A DNA stretch of 64,000 nucleotides, from contig JAHPZA010000004.1 of NCBI GenBank assembly GCA_019058445.1, forward strand, positions 386,184 to 450,183, read 5' to 3'. The notes under the pieces were generated by a model, which had not been told where the DNA came from, did not search any database, and saw only the letters and a program-made list of their open reading frames with translations. The translations under genes and the position numbers were made by a program. How positions within the stretch are numbered: position 1 is the first letter of the stretch; each line of letters begins with the position of its first letter. Shown here piece after piece: positions 19,947 through 27,570 of this stretch. Source of the DNA: Promethearchaeota archaeon (GTDB lineage: Archaea; Asgardarchaeota; Lokiarchaeia; Sigyniarchaeales; SOKP01).

Positions 19947-21248
19947 GTGGAAAAACAATTGTTAAAAAAAACTAGTTATGCTCAAGCAATAAATGACGAA
20001 ATTCTTGAGAAGCTTAGCCTGAAGAATAGATATGCCTGGGTGAATAATAATCTTCAATCGATTTTGACAACGGAACAATTTAATTTCTTTAGAAAAGTTC
20101 AAAGATTTTGTTTAAAATTTGAGAAGAAACACGATATTACTCATAAAACAGATGAGGATATTTATTCATGGATTCCCGAATTTGGAGCAGAAGGTTATAT
20201 TACCAGAGCTCATAGTTTTGAATGTTGTGATTTAAATCAAGACCCACATGGGGCAGTTCCTGACTTTTTAAGGAACCTGGCAATGGATATGTTCGATCCT
20301 CAATTTGCAATGGCAGGTGGGGCAACTGTTCTCGCAATCAACCCCGTTCATGAACATCATGAAAATATTCCCGTGAGACTCGAGGCTATGAAAGAATTGG
20401 CTACTGGTAAAACTCCAGGAGCGATTTGTATAACAGAACCTGAGCGAGGATCTGATGCGGTTCACATGCTTACTACTTGCGATGAGCAACCAGATGGAAG
20501 TTTTTTGCTTAATGGAAGAAAAATATTCAACACGAATGCGCCAAAATCAAAATGGATTGTCGTATATGCGACTTCTGAGCAAAATAACGGAAATACCATG
20601 GCACAATTCCTCGTTAATAGTGAATGGGATGGATGGAATTGTGAACGGGTTTTCATTCCGTGGGTTCCTAAAGTTCACTTAGGACATGAAACTTTTGAAA
20701 ATCTAAGAGTTCCAAAAGAATATATTTTAGGAGGTATCGGAAAGGGGCGTGAACACCTCTTTGAGGGTTTAGTACCTGAAAGAATAGGTATAGCCGCTAT
20801 GGGCATATCCGAGTCTTGGGGAGCTCTTTCTTTTGCCGCAATCTATGCAAATATGAGAAAACAATTTGACCAAGAGATTTTAAAATTCCAAGGTGTCGGA
20901 TTTCTCCTTTCAGAATTATGGGCAAAAACTACAAATCTCACATGGGGAATATTTAAGTTCATTGAAAATTATGACGAAAAAATGGAAAAATTTGGTGGTC
21001 AATTACCTCCAAATATCGCACGAGCATTAGTTGCTTCTGCATCCCAGTTTAAATTTCATTGTACGGCACTTACTAAGGAAGTATGTTATGAATGCGCCAA
21101 TTTGATGGGTGGAGCTGGCCTCTGTGATAATACCTTGATGCATGACCTTTTGAATATTTCTCGAATCCAAGAAATAGTAGGCGGTTCAAGGCAGATCCAA
21201 CAGTATATTATGAGTATGGCTCTCAGGCAATTATTTAAGATGATTTAA
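19947..21248 (+). CDS. Acyl-CoA dehydrogenase
   Basis: ITEPERGSD, LNGRKIF, ERIGIAA, RKQFD..I.KFQGV, MGGAG. Confidence 0.92.
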   Translation: MEKQLLKKTSYAQAINDEILEKLSLKNRYAWVNNNLQSILTTEQFNFFRKVQRFCLKFEKKHDITHKTDEDIYSWIPEFGAEGYITRAHSFECCDLNQDPHGAVPDFLRNLAMDMFDPQFAMAGGATVLAINPVHEHHENIPVRLEAMKELATGKTPGAICITEPERGSDAVHMLTTCDEQPDGSFLLNGRKIFNTNAPKSKWIVVYATSEQNNGNTMAQFLVNSEWDGWNCERVFIPWVPKVHLGHETFENLRVPKEYILGGIGKGREHLFEGLVPERIGIAAMGISESWGALSFAAIYANMRKQFDQEILKFQGVGFLLSELWAKTTNLTWGIFKFIENYDEKMEKFGGQLPPNIARALVASASQFKFHCTALTKEVCYECANLMGGAGLCDNTLMHDLLNISRIQEIVGGSRQIQQYIMSMALRQLFKMI

Positions 21249-21581: not shown

Positions 21582-22877
21582 TCATACAGACATTTTATAT
21601 AATTGTCTCAAGGACATACTCATAATGTACTGTTGGATCTGCCTTGAACCGCCTACTATTTCTTGGATTCGAGAAATATTTAAGTAATCATGCATAAGAG
21701 TGTTATCACAAAGTCCAGCACCGCCCATACTGTTGGCGCATTCATAACACACATCTTTCGAAAGCATGGTGGCATGATATTTCAATTGGCTTGCACTCGC
21801 GACCATAACCTGTGCAATATTTGGAGGCAATTCCCCACCGAATTTTTCCATTTTCTCATCGAACAATTCGCAGAATTTGAGTAATCCTAAGGTTACATTA
21901 GTTACTCTCGCCCAGAGATCAGTTAATAGAAATCCGACACCTTGGAATAACAAGATCAATTTATCAAATTGTTTTCTTAAGTTTGCATAAATTACAGCAT
22001 GAGCTAATGAACCCCAGCATTGACTTATGCTCATAACCGCTATGGCAATTCTTTCTGGGACTAAACCCTCAAAGAGATGTTCACGTCCCTTTCCTACTGG
22101 TCCTAAGATATATTCTTTTGGAACCCTAGCATTCGTGAGAGTTTCTTTACCAAGAAAGAGTTTTGGCACCCATGGTATATATACTCGTTCGACATTAACA
22201 CCATCCCAAGAGGTATTTATCAGGAATTGGGCCATGGTATTTCCGTTATTTTGTTCAGCAGTAGCATATCCGACAAGCCATCTTGATTTAGGGGCATTCG
22301 TGCTGAAAATTTTAGTTCCATTAAGTAAAAAGCTCCCATCTGGTTGCTCATCGCAGGTCGTAAGCTGATGGACCGCATCTGAACCTCTTTCCGGTTCTGT
22401 TATTAGTATTGCTCCTGGGGATTTACCAGTGACCATTTCTTTTAGAGCCTCAATTCTTACTGGCACGTTATCATGGTGCTCATGCACGGGATTGATTGCG
22501 AGAACTGTTGCTCCTCCTCCCATGGCGAATTGTGGATCAAACATATCAATTGCGAGATTACGCATGAAATCCATTGCTAATCCATGCTCTTTATAGTTCA
22601 AATCACATTCAGTAAAAGGATGCATTCGCGTGATATAACCCTTTTCTCCAAAAGCAGGAACCCAATCATAAACATCCTCATCTGAATTATGTTTTATATT
22701 ATTTTGTTTTTCAAACTTAAGACAAAATCTTTGAACCTGGCGTAAGAATCCGAATTCTTCCGTTGATAAAGCAGAAGTTAAATTATTATTTAAAAAGTTA
22801 TATCGGTTTTTAAGGCTAAATTTACCAAGGATTTCATCATTTATCGCTTGAGCATATTTTGTTTTTTCTAATGGCAT
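21582..22877 (-). CDS. Acyl-CoA dehydrogenase, convergent paralogue of 19947-21248
   Basis: Same motifs; highly similar along the whole length. Confidence 0.92.
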   Translation of the reverse strand: MPLEKTKYAQAINDEILGKFSLKNRYNFLNNNLTSALSTEEFGFLRQVQRFCLKFEKQNNIKHNSDEDVYDWVPAFGEKGYITRMHPFTECDLNYKEHGLAMDFMRNLAIDMFDPQFAMGGGATVLAINPVHEHHDNVPVRIEALKEMVTGKSPGAILITEPERGSDAVHQLTTCDEQPDGSFLLNGTKIFSTNAPKSRWLVGYATAEQNNGNTMAQFLINTSWDGVNVERVYIPWVPKLFLGKETLTNARVPKEYILGPVGKGREHLFEGLVPERIAIAVMSISQCWGSLAHAVIYANLRKQFDKLILLFQGVGFLLTDLWARVTNVTLGLLKFCELFDEKMEKFGGELPPNIAQVMVASASQLKYHATMLSKDVCYECANSMGGAGLCDNTLMHDYLNISRIQEIVGGSRQIQQYIMSMSLRQLYKMSV

Positions 22878-23267: not shown

Positions 23268-23489
23268 TTAGTCGTCTTCCTCTTCTTCACTCATGAGATC
23301 CTCGATTTTCGCTTCTAGTTCCTCGATTTTTTGATCGATTTCTTCAATTTTTTTAAAGACTTCACACGTTTCACATCCGTCATCTTCTTCACATTGGGGT
23401 AATGTATCACATTTTTCTTCTAAAGCATCTCTTTCATCCAATAAATTATCCACTTCTTCTTGAAGTTTCTCAACACTCATAATTTTCAC
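23268..23489 (-). CDS. Small acidic coiled-coil hairpin protein with a central 4-Cys cluster
   Basis: Heptad helices flank CDTLPQCEEDDGCETC. Confidence 0.7.
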   Translation of the reverse strand: MKIMSVEKLQEEVDNLLDERDALEEKCDTLPQCEEDDGCETCEVFKKIEEIDQKIEELEAKIEDLMSEEEEDD

Positions 23490-23568: not shown

Positions 23569-24381
23569 TTACGAAAAAGAAGGCAAGAAAAAAACAAGCA
23601 AGATAAGAGCGAATATTATTATGAGAGCTATGGAAAATAGTTTTTTTTTCCTTTTACGCTTATATTTCTGCATTAACTGGGGATCTTCTTTAGGATTTTC
23701 AATAATTCTTTCAACTGTTTCAGAATCTTCGGCAACTACCCTGGATATTTTTTCAAGTTTGCGAATTTCTTTAATTCTCTTTTTCTCATCTGCTATGGCA
23801 TTTTTAATTATCTCAAACGTTTCTTCAGGGAGATCTTCTTCAGCAAGCATGACATCTTTAACTAATAAATCCAATCCAACAGTTAATTTATAATTCATGG
23901 AAAAATTTTTGTCTACAAATTTTTTAATTAGAGAGCTCTTTCCTACTGAAGCGTCGCCAGCTAATAAGACCTTAAATCTAAAATGATTCGAATCAACAAT
24001 TTCACCTAATCGAGGCTTTATATTTAAAAGAGCAACAAGTGCTAATGTTTCAAAAAGTTTGTCTACATTAATATTGTTTAAAGCAGAGGTTTCTATATAA
24101 TCTATTAAATTATTACGATTTACTTTTTGAATTACGATATCTCTTTGAATAGATTCACCAATAGATTTAACTAAATCGATCTTATTACCAACCAAAATTA
24201 TTGGAATATTTCCTGAGCGCTCACGAATATCATCAAAATATATATCAATATTTTCGAATGTTTCATGACGAGTTAAATCGAAAACTAATCCAACAGCGGC
24301 AGTTCCTTTGAAGAAATCAGTTTTGAAAAAATCAAACCGCTCTTGCCCTCCAATATCCCATAAACTCAGAGTAATCCTCAA
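23569..24381 (-). CDS. Circularly permuted (G3-G4-G5-G1-G2) Rab-like GTPase with a C-terminal tail anchor
   Basis: Motif order WDIGGQERF, GNKID, ETSA, then KVLLAGDASVGKSS and KLTVG. Followed by a charged helix, KRKRKKK and a terminal TM. In-frame TAG TGA lie just upstream, and GAGGAG precedes the TTG start. Confidence 0.85.
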   Translation of the reverse strand: MRITLSLWDIGGQERFDFFKTDFFKGTAAVGLVFDLTRHETFENIDIYFDDIRERSGNIPIILVGNKIDLVKSIGESIQRDIVIQKVNRNNLIDYIETSALNNINVDKLFETLALVALLNIKPRLGEIVDSNHFRFKVLLAGDASVGKSSLIKKFVDKNFSMNYKLTVGLDLLVKDVMLAEEDLPEETFEIIKNAIADEKKRIKEIRKLEKISRVVAEDSETVERIIENPKEDPQLMQKYKRKRKKKLFSIALIIIFALILLVFFLPSFS

Positions 24382-24552
24382 ATATATTGCGCTCCTCGAA
24401 TCATTTATTTTTCACTATTTTTTCCTAAAAGGATAATGTTTTCAAGAAAATTATTGATATTATAATATTATGGAAAGTATAAATATCTTAAAGTTATTAT
24501 AAAATACTACGATAATGTGAAAAATGAGACTTGTTTTTAAATTTTTGTTGGT

Positions 24553-25275
24553 TTATTTTTCCCAAACTCCAATGAAATCATCGGTTAGTTTTAAAATTTT
24601 ATTAAAACCTAGGTTTTTATACAATTCCCTTAGACTCTTTTCATCATGTTGCCAGCTTGAGCGCTTGTGATATGAATTGATTCCATCATTATCGGCTAAA
24701 AAAAAATCTAAAAATTTAATTACTTTTTCAGGAAAAAATTTAGTTATAAACATTGTTGTTTTTCCAATGAAAGCATATGCATGCACATCCTGAGGCTTTA
24801 CCGCAATAGGCTCACATAAAATGATTTTATTCGCATGTTTTTTAGCATTCTCCACTAAATCAATGTGTCTATTTGTTTGAGCATCATAAATATGATGAAG
24901 AATATCACAGAAGACAATGACATCCTGAGGTTCTTTAGGATATTTATCATAATCGAAGATATTATTCTGTTTTAAAATTAATTTCTTTAGGTTAATTTTA
25001 CCGCTTTTCCAGTCTTTATGCATTTTTTTTAAAAATCTATGATTAAGGTCAAACCCAGTATAAGTAGTTGAGGAACTCAAAAATCTGGTGAGAAATCCAG
25101 TGCCACATGGCAGATCAAAAACTTTTTTTGATCCATTTCCTATTAATTTTGCAATTGTCGAATATTTCTCATATCTATCATACAGACAATCAGTAACAAA
25201 GTTATAAATAATCCCACTCCGATAGGGGAGACTTCTAAAACCCGCAAATCGTTGAAATCCCGTTTTAGTAGCCAT
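24553..25275 (-). CDS. Class I SAM-dependent methyltransferase
   Basis: VFDLPCGTG motif I, GFDLN, DVIVFCDILHH. Confidence 0.85.
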   Translation of the reverse strand: MATKTGFQRFAGFRSLPYRSGIIYNFVTDCLYDRYEKYSTIAKLIGNGSKKVFDLPCGTGFLTRFLSSSTTYTGFDLNHRFLKKMHKDWKSGKINLKKLILKQNNIFDYDKYPKEPQDVIVFCDILHHIYDAQTNRHIDLVENAKKHANKIILCEPIAVKPQDVHAYAFIGKTTMFITKFFPEKVIKFLDFFLADNDGINSYHKRSSWQHDEKSLRELYKNLGFNKILKLTDDFIGVWEK

Positions 25276-25518: not shown

Positions 25519-27570
25519 CTAAACTTTCAATTTCTCAATTTTTTCTTCTATCTCTTTATCGAGAGTTATCAATTCTTTTTCCAGATCTTTAATTTCTTGC
25601 GAGATGGTTTCAAATCGCTCTTCTTGGATACTTAGCTTTTTAATGTACTTCTCTTTTAAAGTATTTTCTTGAGAGGTATTGCCTAACACAGAAATATTTT
25701 CTCTCAGTCTTGCCTGTTCTTCAGTCATCTGATATTTTTCATCTTCTAACTTGGATTTCTTGGTATTAAGATCATTCTTTCTGCCTATTAGTTCACCAAT
25801 TTCCTTAAGTTGTGCTTCTAATTCTTGATTTATAAATTTTTGCCGGACATAAAAAGCGACTCGTTTGAGGAGATCTTCTTTTGTATAATTATAAAGATAA
25901 TAGCTCGAATAATCTTCCTTGCGTTCCTTGATTTCAAATTTAACAGCATCCTTAGGCTTAAGAGTTAATTTAAACCGCCAGAAATTAGGAGTCTCTTCTG
26001 GTTCAGTAGGACTTTCTAAAATTTTATACCCATACTGTTTGGGGTGATCTAAATAAAGTTCTTTATCTTCATTAGTTTTATTCTTGATTTTATAAAGTGT
26101 TCTTGAATTGGTATAATAGTATTCATAGCAATATGCTCCTCCAAATGAGATTCTATGAATGTCTTGATTCTGAGAAAAAGTTTCGTGAGTAATTACTACA
26201 GCTTGTTCTACAGCATAATTTAAAAGTCGGGTATCATCTTTATTTAAAAAAGGAATTATTGCTTCCCCGGCAAGGTTATTATCATAAATTATAGTTGCGG
26301 GGCCTCTCTCTAAAGTCAAACCAGAATCATTTGTAACCTCAATACAGGCATTTGGATTTTTATCGTATTCATTCTTATTATAAAGTAGAATTTTTTTTGC
26401 TTTTATTTCTTCAGTTAATATAGGAACAAGTGCACTATGCTTTCTTTTAATAGACACTGGATTTGAGATATTATATTCAAAAAGTTCACCAAGATCTTTT
26501 GTCTGGGTAGATGTTTGAGCCTTGACTTTATCCATTAAGGTTTCATCATCCATATCCGCAGCAAAACCCACGGTAGAGGCGGTCATTCTCCCTCCTGGAG
26601 CTGGTGGAGGCATTCCCCCTCGTGCTACTTGTTTAGCTTTTTCCAAGGCTCGCATAGGCATCGCTTCAGCTTCTTCCATTTTGTACTCTTTGAATTTATC
26701 CATTTCTAAGCCTTCCTCGATTTCAGTCGGTTTAGCACTTAATACGCGAGGAGGTTGAATTATATGTCTTTGAATATAAATAGGTCTATAAAAATCATAA
26801 ATAAACGATACAGGCATTCCAGCGACTAGAGATAATTCAATATCCTCCCAATCTACATTTGTAGTGTTTTCCACCAAGCTCCAACCAGAGAGCAAACATT
26901 TTTGGTCTAGAGCTTGTTGCTTACTCATAATTAACCTATAGGAAGTCTTCCATACTGGCGATTCTCTTATGAAACTGACAATAATTGTTCGTTCACCCTC
27001 TTGTCCTCCTGCTTCGCAATTAATTGTTATCTTTTTTGAATCCTTTTTTTTTCCAGCAATTACCGTGTCTAAGAAAAATTTTAAATCCTTTTGCAAGTCT
27101 TCACTTAAAATCTTAAAGGATGTTATTTCAGAAAAGGGAATCTTAGTAATAACACCATCATCCTTTAATAAAGCCAGTAATTTCTCAAGGACTTTTTCCT
27201 CTTTAACAAATTTTTCAACAAATTCAATTCCCATTATGGTGCCAGAGACTTTTTCACTACTTCCTATCGTTAAGTCTATTGCTGCACCTTTAATTTGAGT
27301 AATAAGAGATGACAGAGAATTTGTATCAGGAACGTTTAACATAATAGATTTTAACAATTGTGATGTCTCTAAAGCAGCATCATATGAAATAGATGAAATA
27401 TACCCTTTTTCGCTTGTATCTAAAACGAAAAGAGACTTCAAAACGTCATTCATTTCATCAATTTTAAACTCAAGTTCAAATGTACCAGTGCCTTTTATTT
27501 TTCCCTCATTTGTAAAGAATGATATTCCAGTTCTATGTATTATGACTTTTTTTACTTTTAATTTATTCAT
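25519..27570 (-). CDS. DUF4139-domain protein
   Basis: NDVLKSL, PVWKTSYRL, VENTTNVDWEDIELSLVAG, FEYNI..PVSI, LERGP; C-terminal coiled coil. Confidence 0.8.
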   Translation of the reverse strand: MNKLKVKKVIIHRTGISFFTNEGKIKGTGTFELEFKIDEMNDVLKSLFVLDTSEKGYISSISYDAALETSQLLKSIMLNVPDTNSLSSLITQIKGAAIDLTIGSSEKVSGTIMGIEFVEKFVKEEKVLEKLLALLKDDGVITKIPFSEITSFKILSEDLQKDLKFFLDTVIAGKKKDSKKITINCEAGGQEGERTIIVSFIRESPVWKTSYRLIMSKQQALDQKCLLSGWSLVENTTNVDWEDIELSLVAGMPVSFIYDFYRPIYIQRHIIQPPRVLSAKPTEIEEGLEMDKFKEYKMEEAEAMPMRALEKAKQVARGGMPPPAPGGRMTASTVGFAADMDDETLMDKVKAQTSTQTKDLGELFEYNISNPVSIKRKHSALVPILTEEIKAKKILLYNKNEYDKNPNACIEVTNDSGLTLERGPATIIYDNNLAGEAIIPFLNKDDTRLLNYAVEQAVVITHETFSQNQDIHRISFGGAYCYEYYYTNSRTLYKIKNKTNEDKELYLDHPKQYGYKILESPTEPEETPNFWRFKLTLKPKDAVKFEIKERKEDYSSYYLYNYTKEDLLKRVAFYVRQKFINQELEAQLKEIGELIGRKNDLNTKKSKLEDEKYQMTEEQARLRENISVLGNTSQENTLKEKYIKKLSIQEERFETISQEIKDLEKELITLDKEIEEKIEKLKV

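Follow-up and report, generated by a model that had tools for sequence, protein, structure and literature searches.

The window examined here is a stretch of 64,000 nucleotides from the genome of a Promethearchaeota archaeon, and it contains a complete open reading frame for a small GTPase whose G motifs stand in a permuted order (Table 1). A protein identical to this permuted GTPase is on record (P0002). The genes around it follow one another in the order 683-residue protein, methyltransferase, permuted GTPase, 73-residue acidic protein and acyl-CoA dehydrogenase, and an AT-rich spacer of 170 nt separates the GTPase gene from the methyltransferase gene upstream.

The TTG start codon is shared by the window gene and three close orthologues. 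The initial annotation had reported an in-frame stop and a GAGGAG element just upstream of this TTG, and both were located at the positions given in Table 1. No ATG, GTG or TTG lies between that stop and the TTG, and purine-rich elements occupy the position equivalent to the GAGGAG in orthologous loci. A second sample from the same study yielded a contig that spans positions 24334-24484 with zero differences and bridges the start of the gene; the contigs of samples two and three cover the window stretch in pieces only. In one orthologue (L010:6574-7392, reverse strand, genome G149), the stretch from the upstream stop to beta3 is devoid of ATG, GTG and TTG, which suggests that translation may begin at a near-cognate codon such as ATT.

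The genome from which the window derives (4.6 Mb in 10 contigs, 92.6% complete) carries one permuted gene. It also has about 50 canonical small GTPase genes, as fits an Asgard archaeon, with examples at C4:310834-313917, C10:589702-592090 and C6:609666-610643, and several of them lie in head-to-tail arrays. Such arrays, together with a 592-residue ORF that gives two G-domain matches, are raw material for permutation by duplication.

Table 1. Positions, in window coordinates, of the permuted GTPase gene, its parts and its neighbours.
Feature	Residues	Position	Strand	Basis or remarks
Acyl-CoA dehydrogenase, one of two divergent paralogues		19947-21248	+	
Acyl-CoA dehydrogenase, second paralogue		21582-22877	-	
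73-residue very acidic coiled-coil protein		23268-23489	-	four cysteines, C-x5-C-x5-C-x2-C; no family assignment
Permuted GTPase ORF, complete	1-270	23569-24381	-	TTG start; 270 aa + stop
C-terminal hydrophobic TM segment	248-266	23584-23640	-	Kyte-Doolittle mean 2.23 over 19 residues
Polybasic patch K-R-K-R-K-K-K, cytoplasmic side of TM	241-247	23641-23661	-	sequence
Charged helical stalk	181-239	23665-23841	-	model helix 186-220; composition
beta2, last G-domain element	171-179	23845-23871	-	Rab alignment; model strand 172-178
G2/switch I, Y-K-L-T-V-G (T167)	164-169	23875-23892	-	aligns with Rab7 Y-K-A-T-I-G
G1/P-loop, G-D-A-S-V-G-K-S	142-149	23935-23958	-	Rab alignment and conservation
Connector from alpha5 to beta1, P-R-L-G-E ... 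H-F-R-F	121-136	23974-24021	-	family-specific, conserved
G5, E-T-S-A (T98-S-A100)	97-100	24082-24093	-	Rab alignment and conservation
G4, N-K-I-D (N66, D69)	66-69	24175-24186	-	Rab alignment and conservation
beta3 and start of G3/switch II, W-D-I-G-G-Q-E-R-F (D9, G12, Q13)	2-16	24334-24378	-	aligns with Rab7 from residue 57 onward
GAGGAG Shine-Dalgarno-like element		24392-24397	-	10 nt 5' of TTG; sequence reading
In-frame TGA upstream of the GTPase		24412-24414	-	10 sense codons before TTG
Class I methyltransferase, next gene upstream		24553-25275		
683-residue protein		25519-27570	-	no Pfam/NCBIfam match; Lys/Glu-rich, coiled-coil-like C-terminal region

Order of the G motifs and predicted fold

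Comparison of the protein with all PDB chains by phmmer gave an alignment in two pieces. Residues 3-118 align with residues 57-174 of Rab7, from beta3 to alpha5, while residues 135-180 align with Rab7 residues 8-53, which comprise beta1, the P-loop, alpha1, switch I and beta2. The same two-piece alignment is found in every top match, including Rab7, Rab11 and a Thorarchaeota Rab, and all of the 60 best solved-structure matches are Rab, Ypt or Sec4 proteins. The Pfam Ras model (PF00071) also matches in two stretches, with an E value of 4.8e-35. All five G motifs are present with their key residues (GxxxxGK[ST], the switch I Thr, DxxGQ, NKxD and SA[KL]), each motif once within the 270 residues, and they are arranged as G3-G4-G5-G1-G2. 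The break in the chain falls on the turn of the beta2/beta3 hairpin, and where ordinary GTPases have free N- and C-termini, this protein has the connector. Order, breakpoint and single motif set had all been read from the letters by the initial annotation, whose description of the sequence proved accurate in every detail. Judged by these alignments, the permuted order is far beyond what chance would produce, and about 140 homologues keep it.

The canonical Asgard Rab-like GTPase represented by the Thorarchaeota Rab (PDB 7ezb), along with Rab7 and Rab11, provides the best matches, with E values of 1e-23 to 2e-26 at 30-35% identity. These proteins share with the permuted GTPase the Rab-type G2 and G3 motifs and, as predicted here, the fold, but their motifs run from G1 to G5. 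Members of the YlqF/YawG/YqeH/RsgA group are also permuted P-loop GTPases, but these are broken between strand 3 and helix 2 and have G3 last, whereas in the window protein G3 comes first (residues 9-13). They are furthermore TRAFAC ribosome-assembly factors with RNA-binding domains, found in all domains of life, and do not belong to the Ras superfamily. The orders named in the initial annotation, G4-G5-G1-G2-G3 for YlqF/RsgA and G3-G4-G5-G1-G2 for the eukaryotic cpRAS domain, agree with those given by Elias and Novotny (2008, PMC2430557).

An AlphaFold2 model of residues 1-222, computed from a 50-row alignment, has a pLDDT of 81.9 and a pTM of 0.79 and supersedes an earlier full-length run on a shallow 24-row alignment (pLDDT 66). 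Only the two switch regions are modelled with low confidence, and there is a short extra strand in the connector at residues 128-130. In an exhaustive structural comparison with 48,161 PDB representatives, Rho, Rab and Ras chains superpose on model residues 1-119 (Z 12-13.4, rmsd 1.4-2.0 A). Foldseek against the PDB matched only the beta3-alpha5 part, as expected of a sequential aligner. Solved members of the YlqF/YqeH/RsgA group give collinear superpositions over residues 13-177 (Z 9.6-12.7 for 120-141 residues), the best of them being a pre-60S GTPase, YqeH (3h2y) and YlqF (1puj), with Z of 11.3-12.7 over 136-141 residues. Because these solved proteins share the stretch G4-G5-G1-G2 and superpose collinearly, beta1, the P-loop, alpha1 and beta2 can be taken to lie in their normal place in the model. 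The protein is predicted to form one intact G domain with the usual strand arrangement, which is the outcome that the initial annotation had anticipated from AlphaFold.

Conservation, distribution and gene neighbourhood

Searching 5.8 billion proteins with a word index yielded more than 100 homologues that are collinear with the permuted GTPase, at 54-87% identity, and more distant collinear members came from an exhaustive HMMER search of 1.8 billion cluster representatives. Of the proteins fetched, 140 have the permuted order according to a script that finds both halves. The beta3 motif was located in 114 homologues, and in 94 of these beta3 starts 3-4 residues from the N-terminus. In an alignment of 50 sequences, reaching down to 36% identity, G12, Q13, K67, D69, S99, G142, V146, G147, K148, Y164, T167 and G169 are invariant, as are R15, F16, G126 and F136; D9 is at least 90% conserved in these sequences and invariant in the 24 closer ones. 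The conserved motif of the connector extends to P-R-L-G-E ... H-F-R-F-K, and within it R124, G126, E127, H133, R135 and F136 are invariant in the 24 sequences. The P-loop has Ala/Ser at the positions of Ras G12/G13, where most relatives have Ala-Ala-Ala, and a P-loop of this composition could mean that hydrolysis or its regulation is altered.

A chain that begins at beta3 might be what is left of a tandem two-domain GTPase, whether through deletion, a frameshift or an assembly chimera, and would then be non-functional. Tandem and triple G-domain proteins do exist, with middle parts that are collinear with the permuted GTPase (for example, residues 56-238 of P0154), and the 592-residue ORF with its two G-domain matches is encoded in the same genome. 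A tandem ancestor is itself plausible, since permutations classically arise when a domain is duplicated and both ends are then lost. A remnant, however, would not be expected to share its ends with about 140 homologues from many samples or to have all of its catalytic residues invariant. In-frame stops lie 0-10 codons 5' of the start in ten loci, and no P-loop-like coding was found upstream in any frame in these ten (over 900 nt in nine of them and over 63 nt in L015, which is near a contig end). In L001 and L003, the upstream gene stops 19 nt short of the GTPase start. Tandem proteins fall far from the permuted clade in the trees described below, and P0123 and P0147, the best-scoring tandem proteins whose source was looked up, are eukaryotic gene models. 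Since the N-terminal ends are shared across the homologues, stops precede the start, no P-loop lies upstream and the second-sample contig bridges the start, the gene is, on this sequence evidence, neither a truncated tandem GTPase nor an assembly artefact. The initial annotation had already argued against truncation, and we regard the remnant explanation as largely refuted and give it next to no probability.

The records of the homologues are labelled Promethearchaeota/Lokiarchaeota and other Asgard. A search of Asgard genomes for the same motif order, which had been proposed along with the initial annotation, found a full-length collinear match (E <= 1e-40) in 67 of 400 genomes of the phylum, within only one order. 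The permuted gene is present in 63 of the 134 genomes of the family to which the window belongs and in 3 of the 14 genomes of a second family of the same order; with seven candidates scored per genome, none was found in the 31 other families of the phylum. There is one copy per genome, and the single exception is a gene split over two contigs. A junction-specific query, for which all candidates were scored, found no permuted gene in five genomes that are 96-100% complete, two of which (98-99% complete) are of the same genus as the window. Because it is absent from these near-complete congeners, the gene is accessory and dispensable, and its distribution is patchy.

The order of genes seen in the window is partly kept in L001-L005 and L013, and in a sister clade of longer permuted GTPases, a TPR/SNAP-like neighbour replaces the window-type neighbours. 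Across the family as a whole the neighbours change and so offer no hint of its function; we considered the neighbourhood as a functional operon and rejected this, reading the order as synteny by descent. No GAP-like or GEF-like gene is consistently adjacent to the permuted GTPase. The 683-residue protein is 64-69% identical in L003, L005 and L013, where it lies just upstream of the GTPase or of the methyltransferase and GTPase together. The 73-residue protein, at 60-70% identity, is found on the downstream side of the GTPase in L001-L003, L005 and L013; its distance is about 1.1-1.2 kb in L001-L005, with an opposite-strand gene between, and about 5.7 kb in L013. The acyl-CoA dehydrogenase paralogues remain linked to the GTPase in distant genera (L010 and L012), where the other neighbours have been lost.

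Phylogenetic origin and relation to eukaryotic cpRAS

For phylogenetic analysis, the canonical order was restored in silico, and canonical archaeal and eukaryotic GTPases were included together with the halves of tandem proteins. The archaeal permuted proteins form one clade with two subclades, supported by an SH-aLRT of 100 in a quick tree of 126 rows and by 100/99 in a careful tree of 55 rows. Next to this clade, with weak support (87/80), stand canonical GTPases whose records come from marine sediment and Promethearchaeia; a paralogue encoded in the genome of the window is among them, and the closest canonical paralogue in the same genome is 47-54% identical. The best explanation is that the archaeal permuted family had a single origin within one Asgard (Lokiarchaeia-type) order, from archaeal Rab-like GTPases.

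The order G3-G4-G5-G1-G2 was described for cpRAS, a eukaryote-specific derivative of the RAS family with a T-I-E motif, which was found only inside large VWA or COG2373/A2M-like eukaryotic proteins of 840-3900 residues (Elias and Novotny 2008, PMC2430557). The archaeal proteins share with cpRAS the order, the break in the beta2/beta3 hairpin, a new link between helix 5 and strand 1 and the retention of all G motifs. One permutation event could then be common to the archaeal family and eukaryotic cpRAS/CPRas, with the archaeal family as source or sister. Eukaryotes have their closest archaeal relatives among the Asgard archaea, and a 2026 paper considers CPRas to have been potentially present in LECA (PMC13393502). 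The G2 motif of cpRAS, however, is the T-I-E of the RAS family, whereas that of the archaeal protein is a Rab-like K-L-T-V-G, in line with its 60 Rab matches. The cpRAS domain is moreover embedded in large proteins, whereas the archaeal domain stands alone or is N-terminal, followed by a stalk and TM segment, and its family was found in one order only.

A more direct comparison is offered by P0183, a eukaryotic permuted GTPase from the foraminifer Bolivina argentea (EukProt), which consists of a Rab7-like permuted domain and the start of a VWA-type region and was the one eukaryotic permuted GTPase in our trees. P0183 shares 53% identity with a canonical GTPase from Bolivina argentea itself, but only 36-40% with the archaeal permuted proteins. 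In the careful tree, it nests among canonical eukaryotic GTPases (98/88), and a clade joining it with the archaeal permuted proteins is rejected (AU p=0.0046). In the quick tree of 126 rows, the joint clade is not rejected (AU p=0.68), but there the free search scored worse than the constrained one. P0183, a single transcriptome ORF, may represent a further independent permutation. In a related eukaryotic protein of 667 residues, P0273, both parts recur, with the motifs of the GTPase running in canonical order. Starting from P0183, a search for CPRas led to a GTPase-VWA protein of canonical order and to bacterial VWA proteins, and a feature search of the ESM Atlas returned generic Ras/Arf clusters only.

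The phylogeny of the un-permuted sequence that had been called for at the outset thus placed the archaeal clade among archaeal canonical GTPases and P0183 among eukaryotic ones. The proposal of an Asgard counterpart of cpRAS stands where it means an analogue with the same order and breakpoint, but is not supported where it means a relative, given the separate archaeal clade and the rejection of a joint one with P0183. The archaeal permutation is probably convergent with cpRAS, its independence from bona fide CPRas being taken from the published family assignment, and we consider a shared permutation event very improbable.

Anand and colleagues, as cited in PMC2430557, argued that a GTPase of order G3-G4-G5-G1-G2 should not fold. 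The previous single counter-example to this argument was cpRAS, which was regarded as eukaryote-specific. A second permuted lineage, in Asgard archaea and most likely independent, marks the beta2/beta3 hairpin as a recurrent and tolerated breakpoint. The motif-order string occurs in the literature only in the cpRAS paper (PMC2430557), and a search of full-text literature, with subscription papers and supplementary tables outside its reach, gave no account of a permuted small GTPase from any archaeon, Asgard or otherwise. Apparently, this is an undescribed, conserved archaeal family with a type of permutation so far known only from eukaryotes.

Membrane anchor and proposed mode of action

The G domain of the window protein is followed by a charged stalk that begins with a conserved E-E-D-L-P-x-E turn, in which P185 is at least 90% conserved, and that is modelled with a pLDDT of about 80-86 for residues 181-210. 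The polybasic patch and the TM segment come next. The TM segment is helical in the full-length model and is followed by four residues only, the protein ending in P-S-F-S. The C-terminal tail contains no Cys and no prenylation motif, unlike eukaryotic Rabs, which are anchored by C-terminal prenylated cysteines. A single TM segment near the C-terminus, a basic cytoplasmic flank and the lack of an N-terminal signal are the features of tail-anchored membrane proteins, which are a topology class and not a homologous family. By the positive-inside rule, the protein would have tail-anchor topology with a cytoplasmic G domain. The initial annotation had recognized this tail-anchor-like end but had the anchor attached directly after switch I; beta2 and then a charged helix of about 60 residues in fact precede it.

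The TM segment is not a trait of the family. Among the 120 closest clusters at 90% identity, it is present in 39 (268-278 residues) and absent from 81 (207-243 residues), and because of this majority without a TM segment, membrane anchoring is not proven as the core property of the family. Most of the short forms examined have a Lys-rich amphipathic C-terminal helix that could bind peripherally to acidic lipids; its net charge is +4 to +6, and three of the four forms checked have a hydrophobic moment of 0.62-0.74. The sister clade has long permuted GTPases of 376-755 residues (428-755 for P0128, P0129, P0136, P0140 and P0144 and the two loci given below), in which the permuted domain leads into a Pro-rich linker, then a conserved module and finally two TM segments at the C-terminus. 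The module (K-T-T-V-F-Y ... P-G-C ... L-P-L-D-A-R-K-D) has no Pfam match, and neither short nor long archaeal permuted forms contain a further Pfam domain. Sister-clade genes lie at L011:6412-7731 and L015:64-2187, both on the forward strand, and at each the next gene or the next but one encodes a large TPR/SNAP-like protein on the opposite strand.

We consider it likely that the window protein is a functional single-domain Rab-like small GTPase, working as a membrane-tethered nucleotide switch, and that it arose once in one Asgard order. Because Q13 (the catalytic Gln), T167 of switch I and K148 of the P-loop are invariant, we argue that it would bind and hydrolyze GTP, and we expect a nucleotide-dependent switch at the cytoplasmic face of the membrane. 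The chain would run from beta3 to alpha5, pass through the conserved connector to beta1 and the P-loop and leave the G domain with beta2, and the window copy would be held at the membrane by its charged stalk, polybasic patch and single TM segment. In canonical GTPases, the beta2/beta3 hairpin has its tip on the same face as the N- and C-termini, as is known from Arf structures, in which the N-terminal helix sits in a pocket lined by the interswitch. From this position of the hairpin tip, an anchor that continues from the end of beta2 would therefore leave the switch surfaces facing away from the membrane. With the stalk leaving the G domain from the interswitch in this way, movement of switch I and beta2 with the bound nucleotide might, as a speculation, be passed straight to the stalk, much like the interswitch toggle of the Arf family.

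A bolder form of this proposal is that the family is the first prokaryotic G3-first lineage of the Ras superfamily, independent of the eukaryotic ones, in which beta2 would be an output lever and the nucleotide state would be transmitted mechanically through the E-E-D-L-P turn to stalk and anchor, instead of by effector binding only. We put this forward tentatively and think it rather unlikely to hold in full. Conversely, nucleotide might be bound without switch cycling, so that the protein would be a static, nucleotide-loaded membrane scaffold or adaptor. The hairpin that couples both switches is cut, the P-loop is non-glycine at the Ras G12/G13 positions and GAP-like or GEF-like neighbours are not a constant feature, all of which would suit a static protein. 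Rabs, however, also have a non-glycine residue at the Ras G12 position, and the invariance or near-invariance of Q13, T167, D9 and G12 throughout the family would be unexpected if hydrolysis and switching were irrelevant. A static scaffold is in our judgement improbable, and a nucleotide switch is the reading we prefer.

The family is conserved and stand-alone, of a size amenable to structural and biochemical study, and it offers a natural test of the interswitch coupling between the two switch regions. Asgard GTPases with built-in anchors, be it a TM tail, a basic amphipathic helix or a module with two TM segments, also bear on how GTPases may have been targeted to membranes before prenylation. 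In the databases, members of the family have generic names such as 'GTP-binding' or 'Arf-like', a warning for domain-based annotation that permuted proteins can go under such labels.
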